Shown: positions 11,366 to 64,000 of the stretch, one piece after another
Layout: every line of letters starts with the position of its first letter
Position numbering within the stretch: position 1 is the first letter of the stretch
DNA from: Antedon mediterranea
Lineage: Eukaryota > Animalia > Echinodermata
NCBI RefSeq assembly: GCF_964355755.1
Contig: NC_092677.1
Span: forward strand, 26,337,175-26,401,174
Direction of reading: 5' to 3'
Length of the DNA stretch: 64,000 bases
Translations under genes and position numbers: made by a program
The notes under the pieces: generated by a model
What the model was told of the DNA's origin: nothing
Seen by the model: the letters and a program-made list of their open reading frames with translations, nothing else
Database searches by the model: none

Positions 11366-12765
11366 CAGCATTAGCAGTCCTAAAAAGAGCATAATAGCGG
11401 CGTTAAAGATGTATTGTCCCCCAAAACATGAAAAATGAAGATTAATTAAATCAGACTTTGAATAGGTTATTTTGTAGTTTTAATAAAGTGAATCACTTCC
11501 GTAGAAAAAAAGGGAAACAATTATGTTTTCACTTATAAAATAACATGATAAATGGTTAAATTCAACCAAAAATCCATTGGCTGGCAGCCAATTTGACCAT
11601 TTTTTTGCTTTGAATTCCAGTTTTTTCAGGTAAATAATTTTTTTTTCGATTCAATTTTTGGTCAAAGTCAATAACTATTATGTGACATTAAAATGGCATA
11701 TTCAACAAAAAAAAATTGTCAAAAATTATTTTTTTTAATACATTTTTAAAGCTTGAGCAAAACAAAAGATGTGCTAAAAAGGGGGAAGGTTATTTAAAGA
11801 GCTCATTATATGCTTAAATGTGCAAAATTAGCTAAAGATATACATGTTATATTCTGCTTATTTATGTTTTTTATGCTTTAAACAATCCTTTTTTTTGCAA
11901 ATTGATGTTTTACTTGGACCAATTCTTTGTTCGTTAGATGGTTTATTTATTTAAATAAATCAGCTGCAACAGACTTAAGTTTACTGGCACTGAATTCATA
12001 TTCCTTTGGTTCCTATGACAAAATACAATAAGGATAAGAGCGTAGGCCTATATTATGTCAAGAAACACATGTTTTTCTTTTTACCGAACAACATTAAGAA
12101 AATAAACCTAACAAACATTTAAACTAAAAAGATTTATTTCAATAAACAGCCAAAAAAAACCATGACAATTGTTGTGTGGTCTAGCTACATTAAGGGATAG
12201 TAAAAATGAAATAAACAATAATTACCTTTTGCATCGATTTCTGAGCCATTGTAGTAGAGCGTGAGATTATATAAATTGGGTGAAACCTACTACGTACCAA
12301 TCAATCTATTTAATAGATTATTTATCGGTTATATGCGGACGTCGTCCAGAAAGTCCACTCAGTTTGTCGAATGACGTTACTTCACTCCCCACTTGTTCAT
12401 TTCATTTCAATTCAATTTATTTTCCACATACTTAAGCTATTAAGTAACCTTAAAAAATAATAATTACAATAAACGTAAAACCAGTGAATAAATAAGTAAG
12501 AAAATAAATATATAAATAAATAAAATAAATAAATAAAATAAATAAATATGGCAGTATACAAAAAAAAAATAATCCATATTTCATTTTATATTGTATGATA
12601 TATAATAAATAGTAAATAAGCAGAGTGGTATTTACTCACCTTATATCGAGATCAGAGACGGTTTAAACGCACGCTTAAAGCTATTTACAGATGTTTTATC
12701 TAAGTTTAAATTGGAAATAAATTGCCATAATTTGGGGTCAGCATAAAAAATGGAATGTAGTCACA

Positions 12766-15231: not shown

Positions 15232-15594
15232 GTTTATTGTGGGACTGAAATCACTGTTGGTGACATAGCCGCTTTACACGGCAAAGAAGGCCTAGAAGCA
15301 GGATTTCTTGATAAGGCTAAGGAAATGGTTTCGACAAGACCACAGTGGATTTTCAAAAATGCAGAAATTGCTATTGCATCAAATCCATCATACGTACTAT
15401 ACGCTGGCGACAGGTCTAATAAATTTGGAATTTACTGTACTGAAGGAATCTACAAATGGTCTACACGGAATAGAAGTTTGCGGTTATGGCTGGATGACCA
15501 TATATGGACACCGGTGGTGGAAAATTACATAGCGCGTGTGATAACCTATATTACCGGCAGCAATATTATGGCCGCTATTGGATGGTGGTGGTGA
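15232..15594 (+). CDS. Family A copy A1 terminal exon: one divergent A-domain plus Trp-rich tail (VYCGTEITVGDI...IMAAIGWWW*). Upstream exon not located
   Basis: Acceptor ...AAACATAG|GTT at 15231. The frame is open to the stop at 15594 and is clearly paralogous to the exon at 40133-40507. Confidence 0.8.
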   Translation, partial: VYCGTEITVGDIAALHGKEGLEAGFLDKAKEMVSTRPQWIFKNAEIAIASNPSYVLYAGDRSNKFGIYCTEGIYKWSTRNRSLRLWLDDHIWTPVVENYIARVITYITGSNIMAAIGWWW

Positions 15595-17324: not shown

Positions 17325-20300
17325 TCAAGATATTATACATCTAGATGTATATCTTTCATGTATATGGAACTCTCCTTTCGAGTCAACATAACCTGTAACT
17401 TCTTTCAGGTGCTCCTTTTCTGATGAATGAAATGTGAAACGAAGAATCACTCTGATCATAGAGAGAAAGCTTGTAGTCAGGCAGCATTTGTATTTTACTT
17501 CATATATTTAGCCAAGTTTGATTTTTCACTTTTAAGTGATCAAGGACATCACAACGAACAACTTCCAACTTGTTGTCCAAATTCTAAACGCGTTTTTCAT
17601 TCGCTGGGGGCGCTTTTTCAAAATGGCCACTTATGCTATCAAATACTTATATCTCGGCAACCACTAATCGTAGAGACTTGGTTTTAATCTTAAAATGTTT
17701 GTAAGGTACATATTTCTATTTACTCTAATGGAATATTTTGACCAGAAATGACTGAAAATGCCATTTCTGACCGTTTGACCTTTGACCTTCTATCATCATA
17801 TCTCGGTAACTAATGGTCACACAGACTTGAAATTTGTTTCAAATTGTTCGCAGTATGCCTTTTTATATTTACTGTAATTAAATGTTTTGTTTTAAAGCAA
17901 ACAGAAATGCCATATCTGACCTCTTGCCCTAATGCATGTAATATCCACAACTGAGAGACTATAGATTTGTCTAGTATTGTTTATAACTTGTACCGGTACT
18001 TGTGGTTTTGTTGATAATATACCTTGTTCCAAAATCAATATTTCAAATCACCAATGGAACTGTTATAATAAATAAATACATACCATAAATATTGAATATA
18101 GTCAGATTACCCTCTCCAGTCAATAAAGTTCATCGATATCGTCTACTAGCTCTACATTCCAGTCCTTTGTATTCTCACATCCATCACCACACTCACATGC
18201 ATCAGTACAGAGCAAGTTGTTTTTCTTACAACTACAGCGATTTGTTGAACATGAACCACTGCAGGTACATCGACGAATTTCTAGAAGAGCTTCTGGTGCT
18301 GGTGGATTGTTGCAAAATACCGGCTTCAAGTGACCATCTTCTAGTTGCCAGGAGTAGTCAGTTGCTGGTGGAATAGATGGAGTTGGCTTGCATGATGAAT
18401 TCCATACAATAGACATGATGTATGCTCTTTCCACGTGTGGTCTAAGAGTTGCCATGGTTGGAGGTAATTGTTGTCCTTCCTTGCCTTTCTGTGCAAATAA
18501 CATCCATCTCAAGTCTGTGACATATTCTGCCTTGATCTTAGAAGTACTGTATAATATGCAAACATATCTTTCCATTTGCCTGAAAATCCAATTTGGTATT
18601 TCAGAGGTCAGTCCATATACAGCAAATGCATCTAGTATTTCATCGTCACATTTCATAAGTGCTTTGAAATGGGCAGACACTCCTTTTCCAGCAAATGTAC
18701 CTGTGTTATCTGTACCTTTAAATGCGTACCATCCAATCACTGTTGCTGATATTTGTTTTCAAAGTCGGTAATAGCATTGCCATATAGGTATTTTTTCCCC
18801 TCTTTTCCTACAAAATGTGGTCATTGGAGGAAGTAGAGGATAGCTTCCTGTTAAAAGGATAAAGACATCAGTATCTACAGAAAGTATGTCAACATTGGCA
18901 CTTGGGTCTTTGTTCATACAATCAAAGGCATACAATAAGACCAGTTGGTCCCCTTCTTCCAATGTGTGTTGTCCGTGTGTCATCTCTGGCATCATGATAA
19001 CTTCTGAGAGATTGCAGTTTGCCATCATGGACGTGTGATGTGTTACTAGGACCTTCTTCGTGTTGTTCTTGAAGTGATTAGGTATCTTCTCTGACAGATA
19101 AGTTCAGCTTTTGTCTCTTTGTGCGATAAAAATGTCTTAATGTTCTTAATCTCAGTGTTGTCATTGACATGGTAGTGAATGGTAGTTGTTTTCTGTTTTC
19201 TCTTATCTCGTGTAGATTCTTTTAAAGATCCTGATAGATATTGATCAAATAAAAGACGAACTTCATCATATGGTTTGCTCATACCAAACAAATTCAGATG
19301 CAAAGTCAGAAGCATTGAACTTATCAGACACCTTCTTTACCATATTGACGACACACATTCCATCAAAAATTAGGATTGATGCTGCTTTTTATCATCTTTC
19401 TGTACAGGCCTGCTGACATTATCTGGTAGAGGGAGTTCTGTTATTGACTGCAATACCATTCTTCCATCTGGATGGAAATTTGATGGTGGAGTGCTATTGA
19501 ACTCATAGTTGTTGCCTATGACATCCTTTAGAGCGAACTCTGGCCTGCTCTTCGCCACAACTAACAATCTAGACAGCATCTTTCTCTCTTGCTTAATTGA
19601 AACTAGTTGACCTTTAATTTGGTTTTCACCACTGCTCCTACATCCTTTAAATAAGAGAAGTTGTTTTTCTTTTGAGGGTCCCAAAAAACGGTTTTTTCAA
19701 TCATTCGTGAAGTCACAAATTTATCCAATGCTTCTTTTCCTAATTGGTCTCGCTTTTCAATCGTTTGACTAACATCATCGGAGGTTACCATGCCAGGCAC
19801 TGAGTTGGCTTGTCACTGAGTTCCACGGGGATCTCACCAGGCTAGCATTGTTTGCTAGGTGTTAGCGACAAGGCCTAGGCTGGAACTATAGTGTATAACT
19901 ATTTAACTAAGGCCTCTCTGTACAACATTTATATCAGCATAGGTACATTATTATACAAGTAAATGTATATGTACTAATAATAAGTAGGATTTCCCAGCAA
20001 ACACGGTTTAAATCGGTTTAAAAAACACTTATCATTTAAACTCATGAAATCTAATCTGCTTGAACTTTCAGCCAATCACAGGCTAGGATTATGTATGGAG
20101 ATAATGAGTGGCTTTTATTTATTTTAAAACTTTAATTTCCAAGCTTAAGTGAATGTTTTAAAGCATCAATAATTGAAAAATCAATAATGTGTTACAAATA
20201 TGGATGTTCTGAGCAATCTGTCGAAAAATGTTATCTGTAACCAACATGTTGTGGATATCACACAGGTTATGGTCAAAGGTCAGATATGGTTTTTCCGGCC

Positions 20301-21375
20301 ATCTTGAAACAAACCTTTCCATTAAAGCAAATAGAAACATATATTTTCTGAAAAATTTGGGATAAATATCAACTCTTTCTGACCAGTAGTTATTGAGATA
20401 TGATAAGATCAGGTCAAAGGTCAAATTGTCAGAAATAGTATTTCCGCTCATTTTAGGGCAAAATGTTCCATTATAGTGAATAGAATTATGTACCTTACGA
20501 ACATTTTAAGACTAAAACCAAGTCTCTACGATTAGTGGTTGCCGAGATATAAGTACTTGATAGCATAGACGGCCATTTTGAAAAAGCGCCCCCAGCGAAT
20601 GAAAAACGCGTTTAGAATTTGGACAACAAGTTGGAAGTTGTTTCTTGTGATGTCCTTGATCACTAAAAAGTGAAAAATCAAACTTGGCTAAATATATGAA
20701 GTAAAGTTAATATAGTGACAAATGCTGCCTGACTATTGGTGTCAGTGTAACTTGTTACTTTATCAGTCTCTAACTTTGTCATGAACGCTTGTAGTAGTCT
20801 TCGTAGTCCAGCCTGTTCTTTCGTTTGTTCAGCGCCCTCATTTCCACAAAGTTTGAGTATGATATTTGCAAGTGTACGTTTGTTTATTTCATCGACGCAA
20901 AACTGAAAGATTACAATAATAATTAAACTGATGAAAACAATTAGTAGTAGTTATGAATCATTTCAATGACTGTGACGTCACAGAAAGTCTTAGCCACATG
21001 CATCTATAATATTCATCTCGGATTGATTAAATCCAGAAAATAAAATGTTCGTTGATAAAATAATTGTCACGGAGTAATATAAAATTACTTTATATCTCAC
21101 TTTTGATTAATATAGACCTTTTCCAAAAGTTTTAAGTATAAAATTAAGGAACAAGAAATCGACTGATTAGTCTATTTAAGTTTATTTCAAAATAAACACT
21201 CTTTAAACTCCTGGCTGCTCTCCAGTGAAAAGAATTATCAAGACGTACAAATGATATTTATTTTATTTATTCACATAATATACCTACCATGACTTCTTCG
21301 CGGTGTTTATCATTCAGGTGAACCATTACAGCAAACTTCTTCGCACAGCTGCTATTAAATGTAAATTGTCCCCCA
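17325..21375 (-). pseudogene. Family B copy B1, disrupted: last exon (20902-20736 plus 17473-17325) split by an Academ insertion and frameshifted, exon 3 truncated (21288-~21375)
   Basis: Near-identical to B3 (43967-44730), including the intron, and ends ...HERYTSRCIIS*. There is one extra nucleotide near 17435 relative to B3. Confidence 0.88.
17474..20735 (-). mobile_element. Academ (AcademX-type) DNA transposon, internally deleted
   Basis: Termini 5'-TAGTCAGGCAGCATTTG...CAAATGCTGCCTGACTA-3', with inverted repeats of several hundred bp and a 3-bp TSD TTG (17471-3, 20736-8). Coding remnant 18120-19800 has XPG/PIN-like motifs (EEGDQ, DTDVFILL, AFKGTDNT..FAGKG) and a C-terminal Cys8 finger (CTCSGSCSTNRCSCKKNNLLCTDACEC). 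Confidence 0.88.
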
Positions 21376-23325
21376 TAATAATTTATCGTGCTTATAAACT
21401 AAGTCTCATTTGAGAGAGTTGAAAGAGTCGTGAGTTACAACCCTGGCATTAGGTCAGGATTGAACCACGGAATTTGGCACGTTAACCACCAAGCTACAGC
21501 TCCACTACATTATGCCAATCCACAGTAGGGCACTGCAGTTTGAGAGATTAATATGGTAAAAATCAATTTTGAAACTGTTGCTTTTTTTGTCAATATCATT
21601 TTTTCATTAAATTCAAAACCATAAAATTACTAACTATTCAACTATTGTTGTAAAGTTCAATTTCCTAATCAAATGAATTGATAATAAACATAAAATGATA
21701 CTTTATATCTGATGACGCATATGCGTCTTTTGTAGTGTGCCATTTGAAACATATTTATATTTAATATTTATTAACTCCTAACAAAAAAACATTCATAATC
21801 CAATAATGAAAGGGAGGTTAATGCTTGCAGAAAGCATAATAAATGGCTATAATGTTTTATGGTCGCTAACTAATGTGGTATACCCATTTTATTACTGTTA
21901 TTCGATATCATGAATATTGACAACTTCTTTTTTAAAGTATTCTTTTGAAATTCTAACAATTGTAATTTCTTTAAACCCATAAAAGTCGGTAGTTGCCAAA
22001 TAGCCTACTAATTGCAACAGCGAATTTCAGTTCACACATTTTAAAAATTGATATTCCTTTATAAATATTTCCTGACAGTCTTTATTTACAATGCTAAAAT
22101 ATAACGTTACAAAATCTATTAAATTATTTCTGAATGGATTATGCAAGAAGGAGAAAAACAAAATAAAAAAAACATTGACGCTTTATGCATCTTTTGTATT
22201 ACAACAAAATCAGTGACTAAATGAATTTTAAATCAATCCACTACAAAATACAATAAGGAAAATACACACAGAATGGAGGAAAAAACTGTTGACGTTATCT
22301 GAAAACCAATTAAAGACTGATTATAATTATATGAGAAAATCTACACTTGGGTCAACTGTTTTTCTTTCAATTGAGGAGAACGAATATGTTTAGAGGGTTT
22401 TCAAAAAGTGTTTTTTTTTTCCTTCAACTAAAAGACCCTGTTCCTTCCAATTGCCTATTGTATTTGCCTAGTAGGGACACTTTCTCTTTGTGTAAACATA
22501 GATGAACAAGACTTTAGATCTACAATGCAAAAGATAAAGACAATAGGTAGAGTAAGACATTATTATTATATTGTAATACAATATTAGACGTGACTAGTTT
22601 GGTTACTCTTCAATGGTGAAGATTTTCCCCGCGAAGGTTGCATCAGTACTACTATTATAATGATTACTTTGTGTTAAGTTTATTGTTTTCGTACGCCAGA
22701 GTACCACTGTAATTTTTCGAATAAAGTTTATAAATATTATAGCCATAACTTAATAGGCCTACATAAAAGCTTAATGTGGTTGAATAAATTGTTGCAAAAA
22801 ATAGCCTGAGTTAATACAGGTATAGTGATTGTGTCCAACGTTGACAATCCCTAATACGATGATAAAGTGCTGTAAGCACTAAAAAGTGGAATTAAAACAA
22901 TGTTTCATTAAATGATTTAGAAATAAAAAATGGTATCAAAGTATTCTTTTCGATACTTAACTATGAAATTAAAATGCATTTACATACTTTGATTTCGAAT
23001 TAGGAAATTTAAAGTAAACAAAGTACTGTATGTACTGTAAAGTAATGCTAATTAAATACTGGACGTTATGTAAATTGAACAGGCTACATAATAGTGCACC
23101 ACAATCGCCAATGTAAAATTGATTTGATTTATCTGTACCGATAAGATGGTGAAATTAGATAGTATCTCTCTTATCTAATTGGTACCGATTTATTTAGCAC
23201 CTTTCGGGGTCCCTCCGGTTTAGACGCAGCAGGGGTACCCGGCAGACTCTCATTTTCATTGACTTCAAGTGACCCCCAACACACTTAAATAGTCAGATAT
23301 TGGTACCTAGCTCATCTAACTAAAT

Positions 23326-23583
23326 GTACATGAAATTGATTGTGGAACCGAGGTTACACTTGGAGATGTTGATAGTTTAGAAATAAACGATGATGATAAC
23401 TATTTGATAGATGGTACTAGAAAACTGATCTGCAAGACACCAACGTGGGTTCTTAAAGATGCAGACATTGAAATAGCATCTGATCCACCATACTCATTGT
23501 GTGCAGGGAACAGAGATAATAAATTTAAAGTGTAAAGAGGGGAAGATGGGTGAATTAAGATAATAAAGAAGGCGATACCGAAG
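23326..23583 (+). pseudogene. Family A copy A2: orphan domain exon (counterpart of domain 3) with two in-frame stops
   Basis: Reads VHEIDCGTEVTLGDV...YSLCAGNRDNKFKV*RGEDG*IKIIKKAIPK|GTACGT. The acceptor is lost by fusion to sequence homologous to 32140-32314. Confidence 0.9.
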
Positions 23584-23909
23584 GTACGTAAATCAGGTGT
23601 TTTATTTATTTTTTTAGCAGGTTTATGTTTTTATAGCAGGGTAGCATGTAAACTAAAAACGTCTATCGTCTATTAACTGTAAAGGTATGAAAATGAATGG
23701 TTCAATAATACACTGTTTTTTTAATCAAGACACCTTCCCTGCGTTTTTTAGATCTAATTTAAGATCACAAACTATATTTAATGTAAAAATAATACTATAT
23801 GGTTCTATTGCGATAACTTTTTTCGTCTTTAAATGGTTAAAAATGTGAAAAATAAGTCGATTCTAATATTTATAGCGGCCCCGCTATAAATGCTAAAATG
23901 CATTTCGCG

Positions 23910-26202: not shown

Positions 26203-26430
26203 GAAAGCTAAAATTAGCTGAAAAATAGGGTGGAATTACAGGGTTACCATATCTTGAAAACTAATAAGGGCGCTGCTTCAAACTAGTAAAGCTAATCCTA
26301 GCAACAACTAACATGTCGCTGCCAGATGGTGTTGATAACTAATCGAAACGTCGCACACGTACGTACTACTTTTGGTTTCACATAAAGGTATTGTATACAT
26401 ATATATCCTTTAATTATATTTCGAAAATTT

Positions 26431-29293
26431 TCAGAAAATTGTACATTGAATAGAGGGTTTCTTTTCAGGTATGTGAAATTCTCCCTTCGAGTCAACATAA
26501 CCTGTAACTTCTTTCGGGTTGTCTTTGTTTCCAGCTAATATATAAAATGCTGAATCACTCTGACCATAAAGAGACAGCTTGACGTCAGTGAAACTGGTTA
26601 CTTTATCAGCCTCCAACTTGGTCATGAACGCTTGTAGTAGTCTTCGTAGTCCAGCCTGTTCTTTTGTTTGTTCAGCGCCCTCATTTCCACAAAGTTTGAG
26701 TATGATATTTGCCAGTGTACGTTTGTTTATCTCATCCACTAGAAACTGTAAAAATTATGTAAATGTTTACTGATACAATGAATACCTCACTAAGCAGTAC
26801 ATTTTTAAGTTGAGAAATTCTGTATAATCATTATCCAGACTATTTGGAATGTACCCTATCTAGGGTTACCAGTATATGAAATGGTCATTTTACAAGTTCA
26901 ACGGGTAAATTAATTGGTTTATATTGTGTTGGTTTTCACTTTGTACCAGTGGCACTAGTAATGCCAACACTGTTCTAAGTGGGTGCTAAGTTACTATGCT
27001 TCCCAGTCAAAATAGACTGCTACTGCCAGAAGGGTGTAACAATAATATATACGAAAGACCTACCAATACTTCTTCATTCTTTTGAACCATTATAGTGATC
27101 TTGACACGATTGCTTTTGAATGTAACTTGTTCTCCATTTAACCCACAAAATATTAGCTTTATATCTGAAAACCCCTTTTGTCGAAACGAACTTGTGAACT
27201 TTTTCCAGTATGATAGAAGATTTGTCCATTCTTCAGAAGGACTGTCACATGGGTCAACCAACGCATCAAAAACACGAGACATACATGTGTGACTTTCTTC
27301 GTCGGCGAAAGTGGAACAATTTGGAAGATCTACAATCAACTATAAAAACATAATTTATGTCAAATGTATGTAAGAAAGAGGACGTATAAATGTTTTGGAA
27401 ACAATTAGGGCAGATCAATAAAAAGTAACATTAGTTATTCTGGTTAACTAAAACAAATAAAAATTAATGGGCCTAAAAACAATTATTATCTTATTATAAA
27501 CAAAAATGATTTTATTACATTAGTTGTTACTCTTTCTTTGCATGGTATCTTTACCATCAGCGTGTACTCGGCAACAGTTGCTTCACAGAAACTGGTACTC
27601 CATCGAATCGTACCAACGCTCGTCTGTACATTTTTTGTTTCCAGAAAATCTGCGCATTTGTTTGCAAATTGACGTTTTGTTTGGATTGTTTTGTCGTTCT
27701 TTCGATAGTTTATTTGTTTAAATAAACTACTATGAACATTTTTAAGTTGTCTTATACTGAATTCACTCTCGTTGGATTTCTGTAGAAAAGACATAATGAA
27801 GTGTTTACCTAGTACTCGACTACTGTAATCCTGAACATGTTCTAAACCATAAACTTAATTTTTATTCAAACCTCGTCTCTGGCGCACATCACGCTTAGAT
27901 CACACCGGTGTAGGCCTATTATTTTCTGATCTAACAGTGCAAATTGTGTTCGGTGGCAGATGGGAGAATCACTACCAAAAAGGGACAAATTGCCTTCGAA
28001 CTTTTCTAGACCAGAAATCGATCATGGTAGGAACCGTTTTCAAGATAAGTTATTACTATAGCAGGGTATATATTACCAACAACATTTTGCTACTTTGAAA
28101 GAAAAAAGAACTACATTTTGAATTTTCTTTTAGAACATGCATATCAACACACAGATAAAAAATGTTTGCCATGAAGCAATGAAGTTTAAACAAAACCGAA
28201 AAACCCCACAAAATAAACGGTAAACAAGCCAATTTGACTATGTTTTGCTTTATATTACAGTTTGTTAGGTAGGCCTAAATATCTACTTTTTTGTATCAAA
28301 GTGAGTAATAACTATTATATGACATTAAAATGGCATATTTAACAAAATATTTGAAACAACATTTTTTTAGGACAATATCTTTAAACAAAACCCAACATTA
28401 TGGCCTATAAACTAATAAATAGGCTATGACTGTATCGTTTATTGTATTCGTTGATGTCAACTGTTATAAGTAAATGAAAACAAGTCAGTGAATCAGTTTA
28501 TTCAACGTCTATATTTTTTTAATGATATTTCTCTTCTGGATGAATAAAAAAAATGAAATTAAATGATTATTATTAAAGATTACTACAATTTTATAATAAT
28601 AATGAATTTAAAGCGTCCGTTAATACTATTTAAATGCCTATACCATTATCAGATAATCTTCCACCTTATAAGCTGAAGTATTAATTCAACTGTGGACCTT
28701 GCTCTTTCACCGTGTTAAGAAAACAACATCAGAGCTGGCGACGCAATAATGATTAATGAATCAATGGTGGCAATCACATTGGACTTTAATCCAAATATAG
28801 TAGGCCACACTGTCCATACAAAAATGTTTACAATTAATTGAGTAAATTTGTAACGCAGGCCTATTATCTCATAACTGTATATTTTTGCCGTTGTGACAAT
28901 ACAGTTTTATCGTATCGTATTGTATATTATTTTTAATTTATTTTGCAGGGTACAATATATCTTTAATTAATAATCTTCTGTAATTATAGAAACTGAACAG
29001 CATATGTAACCTAAACCTTTGTCAGTTGGCCTAGATTGGCATACGACTGGGCAAAAAAAACACCCGTTATGATAACGATTCTTACTGAAATCTAAGTATT
29101 CAAACATTCTACCATCAACCATACATAACAATACCTTTCTTTATGATATTAATAATGTAACCTACAATTAAAAACAAAAATATTGATATCGATATAAACT
29201 GATAACAATTAAATAGCGTAAACAATTTACCGTCTTGTCAGCAACTAATTCGGTCTTGTGTCCAAAAAAACGCTGTTTAAGATTACTTGCCAT
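26431..29293 (-). CDS. Family B copy B2, ~304 aa, CaaX (CTIF). Exons 29293-29231, 27779-27519, 27339-27064, 26745-26431
   Basis: All introns are GT..AG and phase 0 (exons of 63, 261, 276 and 315 nt). Reads MASNLKQRFFGHKTELVADKT|KSNESEF...TTN|LIVDLP...EEVL|FLVDEIN...SIQCTIF*. The structure is conserved in B3 and B4. Confidence 0.82.
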
Positions 29294-32585: not shown

Positions 32586-35500
32586 ATGCCAAAGGTAAAC
32601 TTAATATCATAATTATTTTATCTAACATTGTCATTGTCAAGCTTATTACAGGCCATGTTAACTTCGTTTATTTTCTAAAATCAATGAAAATTTCATCTAC
32701 TTTAAATTGTATATTATAATTACATATTTAAAATATAAATCCAATATTCTTAATAAAAGTTAATGTGGATTTCGAAAACATTATTAAAAAACAACATCTA
32801 CTGTTCTAGAACATAATATAACAAATTATTTTTAAAAAGTATATTTATATATATATATATTTATATAAATCCAAAGGCAAATTACTGAAAAAAATGACAA
32901 TGCTGTGGGTATCAGTGGCTGGATCTCAATGGAGATACAAAAATAAAAAGCGAAAAGCTAAATCAAAACGATAAAGTAAAGTAAACAGCCAGAAAAGTTA
33001 GCAGAGCTTTCGGGCAACACTAGCCCTTCATCAGTGCAAGTGAAGGAATTTGGATAACGTCATAGTATAAAGCTGGCAAGTGCTGCCTGGGTGGACAGGA
33101 ATAAAAGAAATATAACAAAGGGAGCCAGGGTGGAGTCTGAATAAGAGTAGAAAACAAAGAAGATATATTTATATATATATATATTTATATATTTAATTTG
33201 AAACGATAAAGATGAGGAAATCTGTGAGAATGAGAAAAAGTCGCCCCAACCGAGACTCGAACTCGGACCGCCTGCTTGATATGCAGATGTCCTAACCATT
33301 AGACCACTGGGGCTTTCATGGTATTGTTCGAACTCGATTGGTTAACGACTCTTTAACATTCTCGGCGTGGTACGGCGGAACAGCACTAGTCCTCAGTTGT
33401 ACGCACGCGCAACAGAGATCAAATTGATACGCCCTCATCTTTCAGCGGTTTAGAATTAGTGTTCTTTGCCTATTGTGTTTATATATTTATATATTTATAT
33501 ATATTTATATATATTTATTGACTTATATTCAAAGCCTTTTGGATGTCATTAACCATACAATTTAATAAATAAACTGAATGCTTATGGAATAACAGGTACT
33601 CTTTAAATTAGGCTTTTGACCATCTTGACAGAAAACAAAATATCCCTTTGCAGACTTAACTCAAAGCCTCTAAGCATTGGGTTATTATTTCTAATTTATA
33701 TTTATTACGCCGACTACAACTACATTATTTCTCTTCAATCCTATATTAATACTCTATTTTAATAATTTTATTATTAAAAAAATAAGGAATTAAAAAAAAA
33801 ACTTTATTTCAAATAAATTACTTGCAAACATTAAAAAAACAAATAGAAAAAAAAACTGAAAATGATGATCATAAATTATTATTTATTTTTTTAAGAAAAT
33901 TGTAGTAACGAAAACGATATAAGCCTATTGTCCCACTGAAAATATTTTCAAACATTTTCTGTTGAATATGCCATTATGCATATTTGAAAATAAAAATTAT
34001 TTCCTGACAAAATTTTAATAAAACTTAATAATTAAAAATTTTAATTAAAAAGCAAAAAAATTACCTAAACAATGGTTTTTGGTTAACATTAACCGTTTCT
34101 TTTGCCTTTTTATAAGTAGGCCTAGAGTAATTATTTTTTTGGTTTTTATTTCCTACATAATTTTATAATTTGATTAAAACTGCAAAATAATAACCAACAT
34201 TTTTATCAAGAAAACTATCACAATCTTATAGGAATTATCAACAAAATGAAACATTCCTACAAAATGTCACTTATAACATATTTACAATATGGCAATATCA
34301 TATGGGCTGCTGACTATCCATATCCAAGCTTAATAATTTTACAAAAAGAACACTTACCATTTTAAAGAAAGAGGAAAAGTGTTAATAGCGACTATTGTCA
34401 ACACGTAATACGGCTATTTACATTCGACTATAGTTGTTTTTTCATTGCTTAGCCTTAATTATTTATGTTCAATTATTATTACATGATTATTAGGCTAGTG
34501 TAATACAATCCATAATTGATGTTTATATTACATTGTGTTAACACAGATTGATTGTGGGAGTGAGATTACGCTTGACGATGTTCACATGTTAAAATCTAAA
34601 ATAAATGATACAGATTTTCTTAATGCTACTAACATACTGATTTGCGAGACACCACAGTGGGTTCTTAGAAATGCAGAGATTCATATAGCTTTTGATCCAC
34701 CATACTCATTGTGCGCAGGGAACATGGATAATAAATTGTCATTGTATAGATGTAAAGATGGATCAATTAAGACAAACAGCACAGGAAACAAGGTAATCAG
34801 GGGTTTTGTTTTAATTACAACTTTAAAGTGTACAAGATAAAATCATACAGTAGGCCTCCTTTACTTATACCATAACGATGCACATTGTTTAATGTAGGTA
34901 GTTGACTGTGGAAGTAAGATTACACTTCCACATCTTCAAAGTTTAACATCTGCTACACATATTGAGGATAAAGATTTGTTTGCTGCTACCAGAAGACTGA
35001 TCTGCGAGACACCAACGTCGGTTCTTAAGAATGCAAAAATTGAAATACCGACTGATGATTCAACATACTCACTGTATGCAGGGAAGAAGACTCATGAATT
35101 TGTAGTGTTTAGAGAAGAAGATGGGTCAATTAAAACTAAAAAGAAGGCAATAAACAAAGTAATAAGATGTTTGGCTTTATTTACCGGAATGACATATAAT
35201 CTTACTATTGGTGGTCACGACTTAAAGTTGTCCGCAACTTATTTTGACCTCCATCTGCACATTTTTGATGTTTTTATGTTTTATTGTAATTTTTAAGTTA
35301 TGTTTCTATCTTTTTTGCAATTTGTAATTTTTATCTTTTATTTTAAAATGTGTGGATAAACCAATAAAGCAAACAAACAAACTATTTTATTATACTACAA
35401 TAACCGATGTACGGTACTTAAAGAGTATTGTTTTAACACAGGTACAGGAAATTCATTGTGGAACCGAGATTACACTTGGAGATGTTCAAAGTTTATACTT

Positions 35501-43966: not shown

Positions 43967-46421
43967 TTAAGATATTATACATCTAGATGTATATCTTTCA
44001 TGTATATGGAACTCTCCCTTCGAGTCCACATAACCTGTAACCTCTTTCTCCTGATCTGTTTCTCCAGATGAAATGTGAAATGAAGAATTACCCTGACCGT
44101 AAAGAGATAGTTTTACGTTCTTGTAACTGGTTGCTTTATCAGTCTCTAACTTGGTCATGAACGCTTGTAGTAGTCTTCGTAGTCCAGTCTGTTCTTTCGT
44201 TTGTTGAGCGCCCTCATTTCCACAAAGTTTGAGTATGATATTTGCAAGTGTACGTTTGTTTATTTCATCGACTATAAACTGATAAAAACAATTAGTAGTA
44301 GTTATGAATCATTTCAATGACTGTGACGTCACAGAAAGTCTTAGCCACATGCATCTATAATATTCATCTCGGATTGATATTACTTTTTTAAATCCAGAAA
44401 ATTAAATGTTCGTTGATAAAATAATTGTCACGGAGTAATATAAAATTACTTTATGTCTCACTTTTGATTAATATAGACTTTTTCCAAAAGTCTTAAGTTT
44501 AAAATTAAGGAACAAGAAATCGACTGATTAGTCTACTTAAGTTTATTTCAAAATAAACACTCTTTAAACGCCTGGCTGCTCTCCAGTGAAAAGAATTATC
44601 AAAACGTACAAATGATATTTATTTTATTTATTCACATAATATACCTACCATGACTTCTTCGCGGTGTTTATCATTCAGGTGAACCATTACAGCAAACTTC
44701 TTCGCACAGCTGCTATTAAATGTAACTTGTTCTCCATTCAAGCCACAAAATATTAGCTTTATGTTAGAAAAACCTTTTTCTCGAAACGAACTTGTGAAAT
44801 CTTTCCAGTAGGATAGATGATTGGTCCAATCTTGAACTGGTAGGTTTAATGTCTCAAAGTCGATTTCAGTAGGCCTGTCACGTAGGTCAACAGAAGATAA
44901 GTCTTCAAAAACACGAGACATACATCTGTGACTTTCTTCGTTGGCAAGACAAGAACAATCTGGAAGGTCCACAATCAACTATAAAATACAATGTATATCA
45001 ATTCAGAGAAACACTGATGAAGGGTTAGTGCAATTTTTCGTTCTGGCTGTTTCACTTTATCGTTTTGGTTTAGCTTTTTGCATATTTTATTTGTATCTCC
45101 ATTGAGGTTCAAACACATTTTTTCAGTAATATGTCTTTTGAATTTAATTCAGAGAAAAACATTTTAATATGTCATATGAAAAATGATCAATGTGATTAAA
45201 GTTAACTTTTAGTAGGCTTTGTATTCAACCTAACTATTATCAATGTCATGAAAAATAGTAGGCCTAGTAATGTACTTATTAAATAATAAGTTCTTATAAG
45301 CCTTTTATATCGGTAAAATATAAGATTTGACAACCTCTTGAGAATGATATTATGTTCTCGAGAAATATATTTCCTCGAACAAAATATCATTCCCTCGGGG
45401 ATGTCAAAACTTATATTTACCCTCTAAGCAGTCAATATCTGTATAATAATGTACTGTATAAGAAGTATATTACATTGGTATTTACTATCCATGTGTTTAT
45501 CGTCACCTCCAACGTGTACTCGGCAACAGTAGCTTCACAACAACGGGGAGGCCTACTCCATTGAATGGTACCAACGCTCGTCTTTCCATGACTTTTTGTT
45601 GCAAGAAAATCTGCGCATGCGTTTGCAAATTGACGTTGTGTTTGTATGGCTTCATTATTCGTTTGAACGTTTGTTTGTTGAAATATATCATCTACAACAG
45701 ATTTCAGTTTCTTGATACTGAATTCATTTTTTTGCTGGGAGAAAAGATGAATCGAATTTCATTACGCCTGAATGAACATTCTATATACATTTTTACATAC
45801 ATCTTTACATACATTGATAAAAACTCATACGTTATAGTGTAGAAACTAACACAAATTAGTATGTATTATACATACATTAATGAAACAGAATGTCGCAGTT
45901 TATAGTGAATTTATAGTAGATACCGTATATGCCCAGCATTTTATTCAGTCTCTGGAAAAAACCGCTGACAAAAATATATAGCCATTATTATTATTGGGCC
46001 ACCGGTACGTAAATTATGTTTTTTACCGAAGACCGGTTTTACCGAAGAAATATGATTATTTTTATAGACTAAATACTTTATTATTGTTGAAATAAACATC
46101 CTACTACTTAAATCTCAATCTACCTATAAGCTCCATAAATATCTAACAGTATAGCCTAATAAACAATTCATTTAAAAATGCTCATCTACCGATTTGAAAC
46201 AGGAACCACACTAGCTATATATATCACACTGAATGAGTACTGTATTGATATTACCAGTACATGGACGTGACACATGGGCCGTTCGGACAGATTACCGGCT
46301 AAGTTCCGGCCGTTCCTATCCACTAAAGTTAGCCTAATGAAAGTGAGTAAATTATGAATAGGCCTACCATTGATTCGGTGTCTCCCGTGGAAATCCACCA
46401 CTGACAAACATTTGCTGCCAT
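43967..46421 (-). CDS. Family B copy B3, ~318 aa, CaaX (CIIS). Exons 46421-46368, 45734-45474, 44978-44649, 44278-43967
   Basis: Phase-0 GT/AG introns at the same positions as in B2. Reads MAANVCQWWISTGDTESM|QKNEFSIKKL...QFANACADFL...CEATVAEYTL...|LIVDLPDC...|FIVDEINKRT...RCIIS*, with no stops. Confidence 0.8.
45300..45445. mobile_element. Palindromic MITE, partial copy. Fuller copy at ~57595-57785
   Basis: AAATATAAGATTTGACA..GAATGATATT / AATATCATTCCCTCGGGGATGTCAAA..CTTATATTTA at both loci. Confidence 0.75.
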
Positions 46422-47015
46422 CATCTAGGCCTAGCCAGCTGCTGAACTTACATACAAGAGATACAGTATACAGTATAATCAGAAAGAGTTGACCTGTTGA
46501 ATGAAGTTATGTGCACCACCAACAATAGGTTGACGTCACTTCATTTACATTTAAAGATTGGAAATTCCAATAAGAATATTTTAGAAAAGCAAACAGTCGG
46601 TTTCCAAGCATTTGGTTGGTAAGTATGGTTAATACCCTTGAAATATTTTAGGTTTACTTACCACCACTAAAATTTTACCGTATAAATATAAATCCTAGCT
46701 ACTAGCTGCAGAATTTCGTAGTAAAAAAGGTGTCTTTGATGACAACAATTTAATATAACAAAACCTGGAATTACCAAGCCGACGATCGAGAGAGCTTCGT
46801 ACTGCTGGAACGATTGGTGTGTAGGCCAAATTACGTGTGCGTGGTTTGTTTCCGACCATCAGAATGGAAGGTGTTTCGTTGCAAAGTGAAACATGGTAGG
46901 CCTTAAAAGTTTTAAGTTTGGTGGAAATTAAAAAGAAAAGCTACTTCTTATTTTTGGTTTAGGTGAAGCCGCATATTTGGTTGGTGTTCTACATTCTCTA
47001 TAACATAAACTCAAC
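46422..47015. promoter_or_regulatory. Candidate bidirectional promoter between B3 and A4
   Basis: 594 bp separate the divergent ATGs. Motifs: TGACGTCA (CRE) at 46531, TTGGAAATTCCAA (kB-like) at 46558, GGAATTACC at ~46767, AAAGTGAAAC (IRF-like) at 46883. Confidence 0.5.
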
Positions 47016-47580
47016 ATGCCAAAGGAGGTACGGGTAAACATATTTTTGTAGTAAAATTATTGTCCACTATATATTATAATGTTTCGCACTCGGTATTCAT
47101 AACAACTAAAGTACGTAACAATGCTTTTAAAAAGGTTTAAGTTACCAGGGCATTAGGTACACCGGCAGGTTATTTAAGAAAAAAAGATAACAGTGATTGT
47201 TTTTTTAAATTTGAAGTGAACAAATAAAGTATTCATCATTCCAAATCCAAGGGAATATATAAAGGATATAATCGTATTAACAAAAATACCATTTAATGTA
47301 TTCAAATATTGTTTTTACACAGGTTGATATTGATTGTGGAAATGAGATTACCCTTGGAGATGTACAGAGTTTAATCTATAAAATAGATGAAAATTTAGTT
47401 GATGGTACCAAGAGACTGGTTTGCAAGACAGAAAAGTGGGTTCTTAAAGATGCAAAAATAATTATAGCATCTGAGCCACTATACTCATTGTTTGCAGGGG
47501 ACAAGGCTAATGTATTCACAGTGTATAAAGAAAAAGACGGGTCAATTAAGACTGGAAAAAAAAGGCGCATGGTTGGTTGA
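47016..47580 (+). CDS. Family A copy A4, single domain. Exons 47016-47027 (MPKE) and 47323-47580. The tail is frameshifted at an A8 run (possible pseudogene or sequencing error)
   Basis: GT/AG phase 0. Reads VDIDCGNEITLGDV...YSLFAGDK...DGSIKTGKK. The shifted frame continues AHGWLKWFYDACVWV, homologous to A3 ERSWWKLIYDGCRWV. Confidence 0.7.
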
Positions 47581-47824
47581 AATGGTTCTATGATGCATGT
47601 GTCTGGGTTTCGATTAGAGACATACTGAGCATCATACTTTTGTTTTCGTCTAGTAAGAAAGCTATCAAAAATTAATAAAAATAATAATAGAACAAACATC
47701 AACATATTTAATAATAAATCAATCATGGTTGTTATTATCGAAATAGGTTATACTTTTTTTCAAAATGTCATGCTGAGATAGATAAAAATAGTTTAAAAAA
47801 TCAATGTTCAGGCCTACAATCAAT

Positions 47825-50045: not shown

Positions 50046-52612
50046 TCAGAAAATTGTACATTGAATAGAGGGTTCTTTTTCAGGTATGTGAAATTCTCCC
50101 TTCGAGTCAACATAACCTGTAACTTCTTTCGGGTTGTCTTTGTTTCCAGCTAATATATAAAATGCTGAATCACTCTGACCATAAAGAGACAGCTTGACGT
50201 CAGTGAAACTGGTTACTTTATCAGCCTCCAACTTGGTCATGAACGCTTGTAGTAGTCTTCGTAGTCCAGCCTGTTCTTTCGTTTGTTCAGCGCCCTCATT
50301 TCCACAAAGTTTGAGTATGATATTTGCCAGTGTACGTTTGTTTATCTCATCCACTAGAAACTGTAAAAATTATGTAAATGTTTACTGATACAATGAATAC
50401 CTCACTAAGCAGTACATTTTTAAGTTGAGAAATTCTGTATAATCATTATCCAGACTATTTGGAATGTACCCTATCTAGGGTTACCAGTATATGAAATGGT
50501 CATTTTACAAGTTCAACGGGTAAATTAATTGGTTTATATTGTGTTGGTTTTCACTTTGTACCAGTGGCACTAGTAATGCCAACACTGTTCTAAGTGGGTG
50601 CTAAGTTACTATGCTTCCCAGTCAAAATAGACTGCTACTGCCAGAAGGGTGTAACAATAATATATACGAAAGACCTACCAATACTTCTTCATTCTTTTGA
50701 ACCATTATAGTGATCTTGACACGATTCCTTTTGAATGTAACTTGTTCTCCATTTAACCCACAAAATATTAGCTTTATATCTGAAAACCCTTTTTGTCGAA
50801 ATGAACTTGTGAACTTTTTCCAGTATGATAGAAGATTTGTCCATTCTTCAGAAGGACTGTCACGTGGGTCAACCAACGCATCAAAAACACGAGACATACA
50901 TGTGTGACTTTCTTCGTCGGCGAAAGTGGAACAATTTGGAAGATCTACAATCAACTATAAAAACATAATTTATGTCAAATGTATGTAAGAAAGAGGACGT
51001 ATAAAGATTTTGGAAACAATTAGGGCAGATCAATAAAAAGTAACATTAGTTATTCTGGTTAACTAAAACAAATAAAAATTAATGGGCCTAAAAACAATTA
51101 TTATCTTAATATAAACAAAAATGATTTTATTACATTAGTTGTTACTCTTTCTTTGCATGGTATCTTTACCATCAGCGTGTACTCGGCAACAGTTGCTTCA
51201 CAGAAATTGGTACTCCATCGAATCGTACCAACGCTCGTCTGTACATTTTTTGTTTCCAGAAAATCTGCGCATTTGTTTGCAAATTGACGTTTTGTTTGGA
51301 TTGTTTTGTCGTTCTTTCGATAGTTTATTTGTTTAAATAAACTACTATGAACATTTTTAAGTTGTCTTATACTGTATTCACTCTCGTTGGATTTCTGTAG
51401 AAAAGACATAATGAAGTGTTTACCTAATAGTACTCGACTACTGTAATCCTGAATATGTTTTAATCCTTAAACTTAATTTTTATTGAAAACCTCGTCTCTG
51501 GCACACATCACGCTTAGATCACACCGGTGTATTATTTTCTGATCTAACAACAGTGCAAATTTTGTCAGGTGGCAGATGGGAGAATCACTACCAAAAAGGG
51601 ACAAATTGCCTTCAAACTTTTTGAGACCAGAAATATGACATTTAAATGGTATATTTAACACAAAATTTGAAACAAAATTTTTTTGAAACAATATCTTTAA
51701 CAAAAACAACAACATTATGGCCTATAAACTAATAAATATGAATGTATCGTTTATTGTATTCGTTGATGTCATCTGTTATAAGTAAATGAAAACAAGTCAG
51801 TGAATCAGTTTGATCAACGTTTATATTTTTTAAAATGATATTTCTCTTTTAGATGAATAAAAAATGAATTAATGAAATTAAATGATTATTATTAAAGATT
51901 ACTACATTTTCATATAATATACATTTAAAGCGTCCGCTAATACTATGTAAAGGCCTATACAATTATCAGATAATATTCCACATTATAAGCTGAAGTACTA
52001 GTTCAACTGTGGACCTTGCTCTTTCACTATGTTAAGAAAACAACATCAGAGATTGCGACGCACATAATGATTAATGAATCAATGGGGGTAATCACATTGT
52101 ACTTTAATCCAAATATAGTAGGCCACTGTCCATACAAAAATGTTTACAATTAATTGAGTAAATTTGTAACGCAGGCCTATTATCTCATAACTGTATATTT
52201 TTGCCGTTGTGACAATAAAGTTTTATCGTATCGTATTGTATATTATTTTTAATTTATTTTGCAGGGTACAATATATCTTTAATTAATAATCTTCTGTAAT
52301 TATAGAAACTGAACAGCATATGTTATGTAACCTAAACCTTTGTCAGTTGGCCTAGATTGGCATACGACTGGGCAAAAAAAACCCGTTGTGACAACGATTC
52401 TTACTGAAATCTAATTATTCAAACATTTTATCATCAACCATACATAACAATACCTTTCTTTATGATATTAATAATGTAACCTACAATTAAAAACAAAAAT
52501 ATTGATATCGATATAAACTGATAACAATTAAATAGCGTAAACGATTTACCGTCTTGTCAGCAACTAATTCGGTCGTGTGTCCAAAAAAACGCTGTTTAAG
52601 ATTACTTGCCAT
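50046..52612 (-). CDS. Family B copy B4, ~304 aa, CaaX (CTIF). Exons 52612-52550, 51394-51134, 50954-50679, 50360-50046
   Basis: Duplicate of B2 with intact splice sites and frame. Confidence 0.82.
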
Positions 52613-55904: not shown

Positions 55905-58900
55905 ATGCCAAAGGTAAACTTAATATCATAATTATTTTATCTAACATTGTTATTGTCAAGCTTATTACAGGCCATGTTAACTTCGTTTATTTTCTAAAAT
56001 CAATGAAAATTTCATCTACTTTAAATTGTATATTATAATTACATATTTAAAATATAAATCCAATATTCTTAATAAAAGTTAATGTGGATTTCGAAAACAT
56101 TATTAAAAAACAACATCTACTGTTCTAGAACATAATATAACAAATTATTTTTAAAAAGTATATTTATATATATATATATTTATATAAATCCAAAGGCAAA
56201 TTACTGAAAAAAATGACAATGCTGTGGGTATCAGTGGCTGGATCTCAATGGAGATACAAAAATAAAAAGCGAAAAGCTAAATCAAAACGATAAAGTAAAG
56301 TAAACAGCCAGAAAAGTTAGCAGAGCTTTCGGGCAACACTAGCCCTTCATCAGTGCAAGTGAAGGAATTGGGATAACGTCATAGTATAAAGCTGGCAAGT
56401 GCTGCCTGGGTGGACAGGAATAAAAGAAATATAACAAAGGGAGCCAGGGTGGAGTCTGAATAAGAGTAGAAAACAAAGAAGATATATTTATATATATATA
56501 TATATTTATATATTTAATTTGAAACGATAAAGATGAGGAAATCTGTGAGAATGAGAAAAAGTCGCCCCAACCGAGACTCGAACTCGGTCCGCCTGCTTGA
56601 TATGCAGATGTCCTAACCATTAGACCACTGGGGCTTTCATGGTATTGTTCGAACTCGATTGGTTAACGACTCTTTAACATTCTCGGCGTGGTACGGCGGA
56701 ACAGCACTAGTCCTCAGTTGTACGCACGCGCAACAGAGATCAAATTGATACGCCCTCATCTTTCAGCGGTTTAGAATTAGTGTTCTTTGCCTATTGTGTT
56801 TATATATTTATATATTTATATATATTTATATATATTACATAGCCTATGTAAATACGCGAACGTGATTGGTTGAAACTGCATCACATGACTACCGCTGCGA
56901 GGATCGTAAATCGTATATATCCTCGAGAACGATGATATTGACTGTGTAATTTTCGCGTAATAATCGTGTCCCCTGTCATTAATCATATAAATTCTCGAGT
57001 ACGATGATATTGACTGTGTAATTTTCGTGTGCAACACTCGAGTTTGCCGATAAATAAACAAAAGTCATCTACTCGATCTTGAACTCGGGTGGAATTGTCA
57101 CTCCATCGCAAGACAACGTTTCATCCGCTGGGCCACGGAATTTGCTTGAAGAAATTAATCTTCTAAACTATTTAAGCTATGCATACATAGCGCCCTCATT
57201 TGTTATAAGTCCACCCTAAATGTGATGAAACACCGTTTGTGATTGGTCAATACTCACGGTAGTAACCTAGTAACTAGTACGCGCTGAACATCCGGTGATT
57301 CGGCTCCTCGAAGATCGAGAGAAGACGAATTGTTTATTCGGCCTACCTGATTATAATATTATTATTAATAGGCTTATTGATGGAAATTCTTCTGTTAATT
57401 TAAACGACCTAGGCCTAAGTGAATATTTTATTGCCAAGGAATCATCAATTAGTAATTATCTGTATATTATTCTTCGCAAGGTAAGGTGTCTAGGCAGGCT
57501 TGTTTTAAATACAATACAAATACTATAGGAGGCCTAGCCTAGGCCTAGCCTAGCTTCACCCAACCCAGCAGACTTGTTCTTGGCTATATAATATAACAGA
57601 TATTGCCTTTTATATCGGTTAAATATAAGATTTGACATCCCCTCGGGAATGATATTAAGTTCTCGGGGAATATATATTTCCCTCAGCTGGCGCTTCGGGA
57701 AATATATATTCCCTCGAACTTAATATCATTCCCTCGGGGATGTCAAATCTTATATTTAACCTCTAAGCAGTCAATATCTGTATAATATTTATTGACTTAT
57801 ATTCAAAGCCTTTTCGATGTCATTAACCATACAATTTAATAAATAAACTGAATGCTTATGGAATAACAGGTACTCTTTAAATTAGGCTTTTGACCATCTT
57901 GACAGAAAACAAAATATCCCTTTGCAGACTTAACTCAAAGCCTCTAAGCATTGGGTTATTATTTCTAATTTATATTTATTACGCCGACTACAACTACATT
58001 ATTTCTCTTCAATCCTATATTAATACTCTATTTTAATACTTTTATTATTAAAAAAATAAGGAATTAAAAAAAAACTTTATTTCAAATAAATTACTTGCAA
58101 ACATTAAAAAAACAAATAGAAAAAAAAACTGAAAATGATGATCATAAATTATTATTTATATTTTTAAGAAATTGTAGTAACGAAAACGATATAAGCCTAT
58201 TGTCCCACTAAAAATATTTTCAAACATTTTCTGTTGAATATGCCATTATGCATATTTGAAAATAAAATTTATTTCCTGACAAAATTTTAATAAAACTTAA
58301 TAATTAAAAATTTTAATTAAAAAGCAAAAAAATTACCTAAACAATGGTTTTTGGTTAACATTAACCGTTTCTTTTGCCTTTTTATAAGTAGGCCTAGAGT
58401 AATTATTTTTTGGGTTTTTATTTCCTACAGAATTTTATAATTTGATTAAAACTGCAAAATAATAACCAACATTATTTATCAAGAAAACTATTATAATCTT
58501 ATAGGAATTATCAACAAAATGAAACATTCCTACACAATGTCACTTATAACATATTTACAATATGGCAATATCATGGGCTGCTGACTATCCATATCCAAGC
58601 TTAATAATTTTACAAAAAGAACACTTACCATTTTAAAGAAAGAGGAAAAGTGTTAATAGCGACTATTGTCAACACGTAATACGGCTATTTACGTTCGACT
58701 ATAGTTGTTTTTTCATTGCTTAGCCTTAATTATTTATGTTCAATTATTATTACATGATTATTAGGCTAGTGTAATACAATCCATAATTGATGTTTATATT
58801 ACATTGTGTTAACACAGATTGATTGTGGGAGTGAGATTACGCTTGACGATGTTCACAAGTTAAAATCTAAAATAAATGATACAGATTTTCTTAATGCTAC

Positions 58901-61900: not shown

Positions 61901-64000
61901 AACTACATGGTCCCAACAGAGAAGAAATTCCAAAGGAGAACTGATCAAACTGTACACTCAAATAGACTATAATGTTATATGTAAAAGTAGATACAAGACT
62001 CTCCTAAAGAACGCTAGGTCATACAACGGAACACTTTTAGATAGTGATCACAGAATAGTAATCACAATATTCAACTTAAAATGGCATCGCGTCAACAAAC
62101 AAAACACTAACAAAAACATTAACTTATTTGCATGTGAAAAGCTAGTGACAAGCGAAGAAACTAGGAATTTATACGTAGAAAAACTGAAAGAATGCATAGA
62201 TGTTGTTGTGAAACCGGATCAGCCAGCCGTTACATGGCAGAAATTGAAAAGCGTCGTGAAGGCAGCTGCAAAACATACAATAGGACCAAAACAAAAGGTC
62301 GGCTACAACAAAAGGACATACGACGACACTTGAACTCAACGCCTATCAACGCACCAAAAAGAACTTAGACAACAAAAAGCTAACTGCAAGTCGGAAATCG
62401 AACGTACATCATTAGTCTAGTGGGCTCCAGACGTTGTTTTTTCTTAATATTAGTAAAAATATAAATATTTTTGCACATATGGCGTTTCATACGTGTATTA
62501 CTTGAGTTTGGATACTCCGCCTGGGGAAACACGCACAAGTCACGTGGTTTGACACCAAGAATTCGTGGTGCATACGATTATCCGGTTGACTAGTTTCAGC
62601 TGCATGCGATTGGCTACTCACTCGTACACCGTTTTAATATTCATGTTTCAGAATTTCAAAGACTCAACAACTAAGAAGGTACGCATGCGCTATGTTACGT
62701 TTAGAAAATGTGTACTTGGGAACATTAATGAAAGTTTCTGAAGGCTAGAAATGATTTTATATTACCGTATGCCTAGTAGTAGTCTGGTAAACATTTGATG
62801 GGATTTTTCCCATGAAAACTCGTCTTGCTTCTCCGCAAATCAAACATTGAATGGATCATTTAATATTACGCGGAGATAATTTGATTTAATTCCCACCCAG
62901 ACCCTGTCCTGTTCTGTGTAGTGGTGTAGCCCTGTCTGCCTGCCGGTGGTGGTATGTAGGCCTACCTTATTGGCGCGCGTTTTATTTGGCAGGTCATACG
63001 TGCGAATTGAGTAGGACCTACGAAGGAGGCCTAGGCTAAGGACTAAACAATTAATAAACAAAACAACTTGGCAACACGATTTCATATTTCAACAGTCTCG
63101 ATCGTACATTCAGCACTGTACGTACTCGATCTTTTTCATTTTGAAACAAAATGATTATTGGTTGATTCGAAATCCATATTTACATACCGTCCGCCCCATA
63201 TAGCCAAATACGGTATGATAACCTACGTCATTTATCGGATGTTTGCGGTCTGCAAATCGATTTCTATACGTGTTTCACAAGTCTGTATTTTCAGACAAAA
63301 ATCGCAGTCGAAATAAAAACAAATAAATAAAAATAAAAAACAATACAGACTTGGGGCAAGCTTAGTACATCATTAAAGCAAAAAAGAAACAAAATCATGC
63401 ATGATATTAAAAAAAAAAGTAATTGAAACACGCAACAACAAAGAACTTGATCAGAAAAGTTTGGATATCGACAAAGCGATAAGGGGCGCCCAAATGTTTA
63501 AAGCAGTGAAAGATCTTAATAGAAAACCATTCGAAAATCCAAAAGTGTTTGATGCTAACAAAAAGTTTATTGCCTCACCAAATGGAATAGCGAAAGTAAT
63601 TGGCAATCACTTCGAAAACAAATTTTACGACGGAAGCAAACGAAATATAGATTCATTTTAGGGAAATCCTAGGCCATTAAATAAAGAAATCAGTGAAGAG
63701 GAAGTAACCAAGTGTCTTTTGCTATATTTGACTTTAAAGTATTGGAATTTATAACATAGATTTAAATTTGTATCCGTGTTTGTCGACAGGACCACAATGT
63801 AAAACAGGTATATTTCTACTTGATTGTGTATAATCCTGTATAAATATGTTGTTAAATAAAAAATAAATAAATAAAAAACATAAAACACACATTATTTGTA
63901 TATACTATACTAACATAATGACGCAAATTGTTTTAATTCAGAAAGTTAATTGTGGAAGTGAGATTACACTTAAAGATGTTCAAGATTTACAATTTGAAAC
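55905..64000 (+). CDS. Family A copy A5 (duplicate of A3, runs off the window). Exons 55905-55913, 58818-59063, 59169-59429, 59713-59976, 63942->
   Basis: Same splice signals and frames as A3. Confidence 0.83.
56563..56634 (-). tRNA. Duplicate tRNA-Asp(ATC)-like sequence
   Basis: Same cloverleaf as 33242-33313, with one variable-loop change. Confidence 0.65.

Follow-up and report, generated by a model that had tools for sequence, protein, structure and literature searches.

Head-to-head A and B genes of the crinoid Antedon mediterranea share an undescribed domain and may act as a pair at membranes

A stretch of 64,000 nucleotides of the Antedon mediterranea genome (contig NC_092677.1, positions 26,337,175 to 26,401,174 of the forward strand; hereafter the window, numbered from its first letter) carries two families of genes, A and B, which face each other head to head. 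The 64-kb window is AT-rich animal DNA containing long interspersed nuclear elements (LINEs) and short exons. A sequence-only reading had matched peptides of the two families by eye, and proposed that B is built from highly diverged copies of the A domain, that the families arose by an ancient inverted duplication, and that they could interact through this domain. The peptides it quoted were all present in the sequence at the places given. The questions raised by this locus are whether A and B are indeed made of the same domain and, if so, what the pairing of their genes might mean.

Homology of the B exons to the A domain

A profile of the A domain was built by searching 1.84 billion representative sequences, which gave 44 matches. 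Twenty-nine of these were long repeat proteins and were set aside, most of them having aligned over only ~25–40 profile positions (seven were checked, six being adhesin-like and one an insect low-complexity protein); the named A. mediterranea protein P0001 and 14 others were kept. The profile comprised 43 domains and contained no B sequence, while the B exon 4 set comprised six sequences. When HHalign was run with the window sequences alone, no B exon was significant (exon 4 against eight A domains: probability 2%, P = 0.023). Against the 43-domain profile, exon 4 aligned with a probability of 94.7% (E = 6.3e-8, 59 columns); the reversed alignment scored 9.9 as against 41.0, and none of 14 block shuffles scored as high. 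The global alignment gave 88.9%, again with no shuffle as high (0/25), and when each of the six exon 4 sequences was shuffled 200 times none of them was reached. Exon 4 is almost certainly homologous to the A domain.

Exon 3 is probably a further copy. It aligned to A in register and over its full length. The local alignment gave E = 0.0029 over 71 columns (0/14 shuffles as high), and the global score was 16.1 against a shuffle mean of 3.5 (0/25 as high); across the two modes E was 0.003–0.004, at a probability of only 3–11%. Against exon 4 it gave E = 0.00037. For exon 2 descent from the same domain is rather likely: it aligned to A in the register that the sequence-only reading had seen, at scores that were not significant and count against this part of the proposal (local E = 0.053; global E = 0.15–0.33, with 1/25 shuffles as high), and with HMMER its reversed sequences scored as high as the forward ones. 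Aligning the A profile with each B exon, the check that had been proposed, bore out the claim for exon 4, made it probable for exon 3 and left it plausible for exon 2.

That A and B resemble each other by chance, as small alpha/beta domains may do, is hardly credible, and for exon 4 is already refuted. Such an explanation would agree with the failure of the window-only alignments and of exon 2 to reach significance, and with the fact that the A profile search, at E up to 0.001, returned no B proteins. Against it stand the exon 4 probability and a bridge calculated at database scale (Z = 5.8e9). The Glandiceps protein P0006, a member of neither profile, was found with the B profile; it matched the exon 4 (B4) profile with E = 1.1e-11 and the A profile with E = 5.4e-5, over the same residues. 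Reciprocally, the B4 profile scored 23 of the 43 A domains at P < 0.001, and none of the 43 when reversed.

Predicted structures were compared as well. The AlphaFold2 model of the A1 domain, with a predicted local distance difference test (pLDDT) of 88–96, has two helices, one short helix and four strands. The Anneissia B protein P0004, modelled from B sequences only, contained three units in a row, each with two helices and four strands (mean pLDDT 72.9; predicted template modelling score 0.73), the first of which, equivalent to exon 2, reached ~90. The A and B-repeat models agreed in the order of their elements, the comparison being one of secondary-structure order and not of superposition. 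This order was alike in all three B exons.

The domain is undescribed, in that these searches gave it neither a Pfam family nor a clear solved fold. In Pfam it had no match above the curated cut-off in single-domain or crinoid proteins; an Rdx match on the many-repeat protein P0036 (summed, E = 5e-6) was not accepted as genuine. Among the crinoid A and B sequences, proteins and exons alike, Pfam gave no match to NB-ARC/NACHT or LRR, the repeats accounting for the full proteins, and no toxin family or fold was matched in the Pfam and fold searches. The Protein Data Bank (PDB) returned nothing by sequence below E = 0.1, Foldseek gave no match at E up to 0.001 against PDB and viral structures, and the ESM Atlas gave no feature match, with template modelling scores <0.45. 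A RelE/BrnT-like hint from that atlas was dropped, its source model having a pLDDT of 0.37. The best Z values in VIA were 4.4 for the A model and 5.6 for the B model, whose rows cover mainly residues 22–111; the two had no strong hit in common. A literature search by locus name and keyword, with closed journals and supplements outside its scope, found nothing on this A/B family.

The best match of the A model in VIA was REDD1 (3lq9; Z 4.4, root-mean-square deviation 3.2 Å over 75 residues; next best 2.8), which would make A and B distant relatives of the REDD1/RTP801 stress regulators, with membranes as their site of action. This is very unlikely: a Z of 4.4 is below the tool's 'common' level, identity was 5%, no RTP801 family match was obtained with 17 + 10 proteins (E up to 10 and 5), and 3lq9 was not found by profile and is absent from the 50 VIA rows listed for the B model. 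REDD1/DDIT4 (RTP801_C) is the best yet a weak fold match to the A model, without sequence support. It is a single-domain mTOR regulator, and is not known to have arrays, pairing or a C-terminal prenylation motif (CaaX).

The two families were also said to share their gene architecture. This held for the phase-0 exons of B (87–110 codons), the internal splice sites of B1 being all AG/GT in phase 0 and the exons of its paralogue B2 having 87, 110 and 103 codons. The A exons (80–88 codons) encode one domain each, the last adding a Trp-rich tail; A3 has five domain exons and A1 and A4 one each, so domain number ranges from 1 to 5 in the window. The short start exon claimed for B1 was not established, since its candidate matched no homologue N-terminus (165–822 of 1000 shuffles scored as high); the B2 candidate did match that of P0002 (0/1000). 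P0002 is an A. mediterranea protein with 79% identity to B1 exon 4; with two Anneissia proteins this exon shares 63% identity. P0001 agrees with the A5 exons at nearly every letter; its record ends inside the third domain (window 59713–59976), where the A5 frame stays open.

Sequencing run X5, from another sample and RNA by the tool's guess, gave contigs covering exon bins only, with the exon 4 acceptor joined to exon 3 and ~30 letters between them. These contigs differ from B1 by 9–44 letters per piece and represent paralogues, not B1. Being intron-free, they indicate that B paralogues are spliced at the exon 3/exon 4 junction. Among the RNA runs listed, none contains B1 itself. When X5 was compared at 90% likeness, three bins remained uncovered, two of them with A3 exons, which is uninformative.

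Pairing, duplication and age of the two lineages

Five B-like loci on the reverse strand and five A-like loci on the forward strand alternate strictly with their 5′ ends facing, so that the head-to-head arrangement characteristic of paired plant immune receptors was found for 5/5 pairs in the window: B0/A1, B′/A2, B1/A3, B2/A4 and B1′/A5, of which B0, B′ and A2 are pseudogenes. A and B have been duplicated as one head-to-head unit. The least interrupted unit is B2/A4, with 592 bp between the two ATGs. No interferon-stimulated response element (ISRE), NF-kB site or gamma-activated site (GAS) was matched in the interval from the B2 to the A4 start codon; an NF-kB-like match close to A3 sits inside a repeat.

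Named A-type relatives occur in Anneissia japonica, Ptychodera flava, Glandiceps talaboti and Branchiostoma floridae, and four others carried no name. One amphioxus protein combines a CARD with two A domains and the same tail. The hemichordate proteins P0036, P0020, P0022 and P0034, annotated as uncharacterized, each have 4–10 detected tandem copies of the domain, and the nearest relative of B exon 4 outside the crinoids is also a hemichordate protein (P0006). In a tree of 50 domains and 94 columns, with many open forks, from which six P0036 repeats and all exon 2 rows were left out, the crinoid A domains formed one group (98/92) inside a larger one with amphioxus domains (94/90); B exon 3 (B3), B4 and P0006 grouped together weakly (80/73). 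Because A groups with amphioxus and B with P0006, B did not branch off recently from crinoid A; the A/B split is probably older than the crinoids. The duplication proposed in the sequence-only reading is in this respect ancient; its inversion is not demonstrable at this depth.

Anneissia also seems to have such pairs. LOC117111682 (A) and 683 (B) have consecutive numbers, as do LOC117113139 (B) and 140 (A), and both pairs have neighbouring protein accessions and contigs of equal size. Numbering, accessions and contig size together imply adjacency, orientation not being given. In the tree the 682/683 pair formed the earliest branch of each of the three groups A, B3 and B4, which would be expected if the unit had been duplicated whole before the two genera split; the pairs are few, and chance could produce the same pattern.

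An alternative that may hold, if with less likelihood than a working pair, is that A and B are co-regulated paralogues which do not bind each other directly. They would have a common domain and a bidirectional promoter, would be copied jointly in segmental duplications, and would each bind a third partner of their own. The 592-bp spacing would suffice for such linkage; the domain also occurs in unpaired hemichordate arrays (up to 10 detected repeats), and unpaired A and B genes occur in Anneissia, where, for one B and three A genes, the returned proteins included no partner with a consecutive number. The matching branching of the pairs, together with the opposite selection and complementary membrane signals described below, fits a division of labour better.

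Evolutionary rates, membrane signals and possible function

The ratio of non-synonymous to synonymous substitution rates (dN/dS) between B1 and B2 was 0.44 (0.30–0.64), with its minimum in exon 4 (0.33); the B family is under purifying selection. A evolves fast. For 15 pairs of A sequences with open frames dN/dS was 0.64–1.51, every interval including 1. Five A frames remain open, an outcome that neutral drift produced in 2–40 of 2000 runs. Site models on A favoured a class of ~11% of sites at an omega of ~4 (P = 0.004 and 0.001).

A terminal Cys-aliphatic-aliphatic-X (CaaX) sequence is a signal for prenylation. In all eight B ends (four in the window and four from databases) a Cys occupies position −4 relative to the stop, with variable residues ahead of it; the motifs are CTIF (twice), CIIS (five times) and CIIL (once), CTIF having Thr at the first aliphatic position. 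The B ends fit a predicted CaaX prenylation signal. The hemichordate relative instead starts with MGxxxS, a myristoylation-like motif. As to A, nine of 13 tails have at least three Trp. The rates of the two families are opposite, and their predicted membrane signals complementary.

These results are consistent with the idea, which we favour tentatively, that A and B form a linked innate-immune or cell-death pair at the membrane. In this proposal B, prenylated as its motif predicts, would be the conserved, membrane-bound regulator; it would bind A directly, and hold or recruit it at the membrane. A would be the variable sensor or effector, with a domain number and surface that change quickly and a Trp-rich tail that may itself bind membranes. 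The two genes might share a promoter, and their role would be one of defence.

Paired nucleotide-binding leucine-rich repeat receptors (NLRs) of plants offer the closest design; in these, two related head-to-head genes function together (10.1101/2022.05.10.491418, PMC8631799). A and B resemble pairs of the CHS3/CSA1 and Pik-1/Pik-2 type in that the genes are related, lie head to head and include one variable partner. They differ from them in having no NB-ARC/NACHT, LRR or TIR; both are arrays of one unannotated 85-residue domain, belong to an animal, and have a joint function that is putative. If the proposal is right, A/B would work like paired plant NLRs by analogy, yet would not be a member of that family. 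Prenylation of cell-intrinsic immune proteins is known for GBP1 and ZAP-L. The p46 form of OAS1 likewise has a C-terminal CaaX box, which targets it to membranes (PMC9041830). The likeness of B to OAS1 p46 is in this C-terminal motif, from which its prenylation is predicted; B differs from OAS1 p46, GBP1 and ZAP-L in having no enzyme or GTPase domain.

Wolbachia CidA/CidB and peel-1/zeel-1 are linked toxin–antidote pairs, and A might by the same logic use its Trp-rich tail to damage the cell or embryo unless the linked cognate B neutralized it, the cassette thereby spreading or marking self. The tight linkage, strict pairing, co-duplication and high turnover of A/B all recall such systems, and a B pseudogene is present in two of the five cassettes (one of them with an A pseudogene as well). 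We consider this improbable. A1 still has an open exon beside the dead B0, though other B copies could cover for it; the fusion with a CARD points to host signalling; and there is the lack of toxin matches noted above. A and B also differ from those pairs in being homologous to each other and in having a domain that occurs joined to a CARD of the host.

Besides the scores of exon 2, a number of observations weigh against A and B forming a membrane-bound immune pair. The A1 tail was modelled at pLDDT <50 and the strands of the B4 repeat (unit 3) in P0004 at only 53–57, and only two of 13 A tails exceeded their shuffles in amphipathicity (5% level). The site test on A was run with our own code on seven paralogous domains and 77 codons, and gene conversion can inflate it; relaxed selection also yields dN/dS near 1. 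B1′/A5 is a 98% copy of B1/A3 and hence not an independent pair. The CARD fusion was seen in only one of the 15 A-type proteins kept. Nor is pairing universal: a numbered neighbour of the other type was seen for two of three Anneissia B genes and two of five Anneissia A genes found, and the two Glandiceps relatives sit on different contigs.

In its fullest form, which we regard as doubtful, the proposal is of an animal paired immune or cell-death system made from one new domain: a prenylated B of three repeats would guard or activate a fast-evolving A, the Trp-rich tail of A would act on membranes, the cognate pair would be inherited as one head-to-head cassette, and in amphioxus the domain would be wired to CARD signalling. 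If true, this would be an animal counterpart of the plant paired-immunity design made from unrelated parts, and invertebrate innate immunity would gain a further module. The results define a protein domain common to crinoids, hemichordates and amphioxus; crinoids keep two lineages of it together, head to head, and these evolve at opposite rates. The small size of the natural pairs makes binding, prenylation and toxicity easy to test.

Loci of the window and neighbouring repeats

The A and B loci are collected in Table 1. Gene birth and death have been frequent among them. A duplication of at least 14 kb, 98% identical, relates window 25437–39690, which contains B1 and A3, to 49049–64000; it may be a tandem copy of recent origin or else an allele that was not purged from the assembly. 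In A4 the frame of the tail is broken after a run of eight A (47555–47565), through a real lesion or a sequencing error.

Table 1. Positions of the A and B loci in the 64-kb window
Feature	Position	Strand	Remarks
B1 exon 4 (104 codons + stop)	26745-26431	-	third repeat, best conserved; homologue of the A domain; CaaX-like end CTIF
B1 exon 3 (92 codons)	27339-27064	-	probable second domain copy; two helices + four strands predicted
B1 exon 2 (87 codons)	27779-27519	-	possible first domain copy; sequence not significant
B1 candidate start exon, unconfirmed	29293-29231	-	ATG..GT, phase 0; no match to homologues' N-termini
A3 start exon (MPK)	32586..32594	+	3 codons; same start as in the named record P0001
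A3, five phase-0 domain exons	34547-34792, 34898-35158, 35442-35705, 39632-39892, 40133-40507	+	last with Trp-rich tail; partner of B1
B2	43967..46424; start exon 46424-46368, exons 45734-45474, 44978-44649, 44278-43967	-	end CIIS
A4	47016..47675; start exon 47016-47027, domain exon from 47323	+	tail frame lost after A run
B0 pseudogene	11890..12249	-	start exon + decayed exon 2
A1	15232..15594	+	one domain + Trp-rich tail; paired with B0; no start exon found
B′ pseudogene	17328..21376	-	end of exon 3 + exon 4, interrupted by DNA transposon
A2 pseudogene exon	23326..23586	+	two stops; partner of B′
B1′	50046..51394	-	98% copy of B1, in recent duplication
A5	58818..64000	+	98% copy of A3; truncated by window end

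The DNA transposon in B′ exon 4 (window 17472–20735) has inverted ends of ~460 bp which are 85% alike and start with TAG, and an apparent 3-bp target duplication. Its decayed open reading frames include a Cys-rich finger and an XPG-like motif, features which recall Academ elements; it had no Pfam match, and no paper was found on it. The long A3 intron holds decayed LINE pieces in both orientations (35744–39350), and a LINE reading frame of 980 codons, still open and encoding an endonuclease and a reverse transcriptase, lies at 7505–10447 (+). A 63-bp satellite of ~21 copies occupies 1133–2595, with a short inverted block at 1133–1285.
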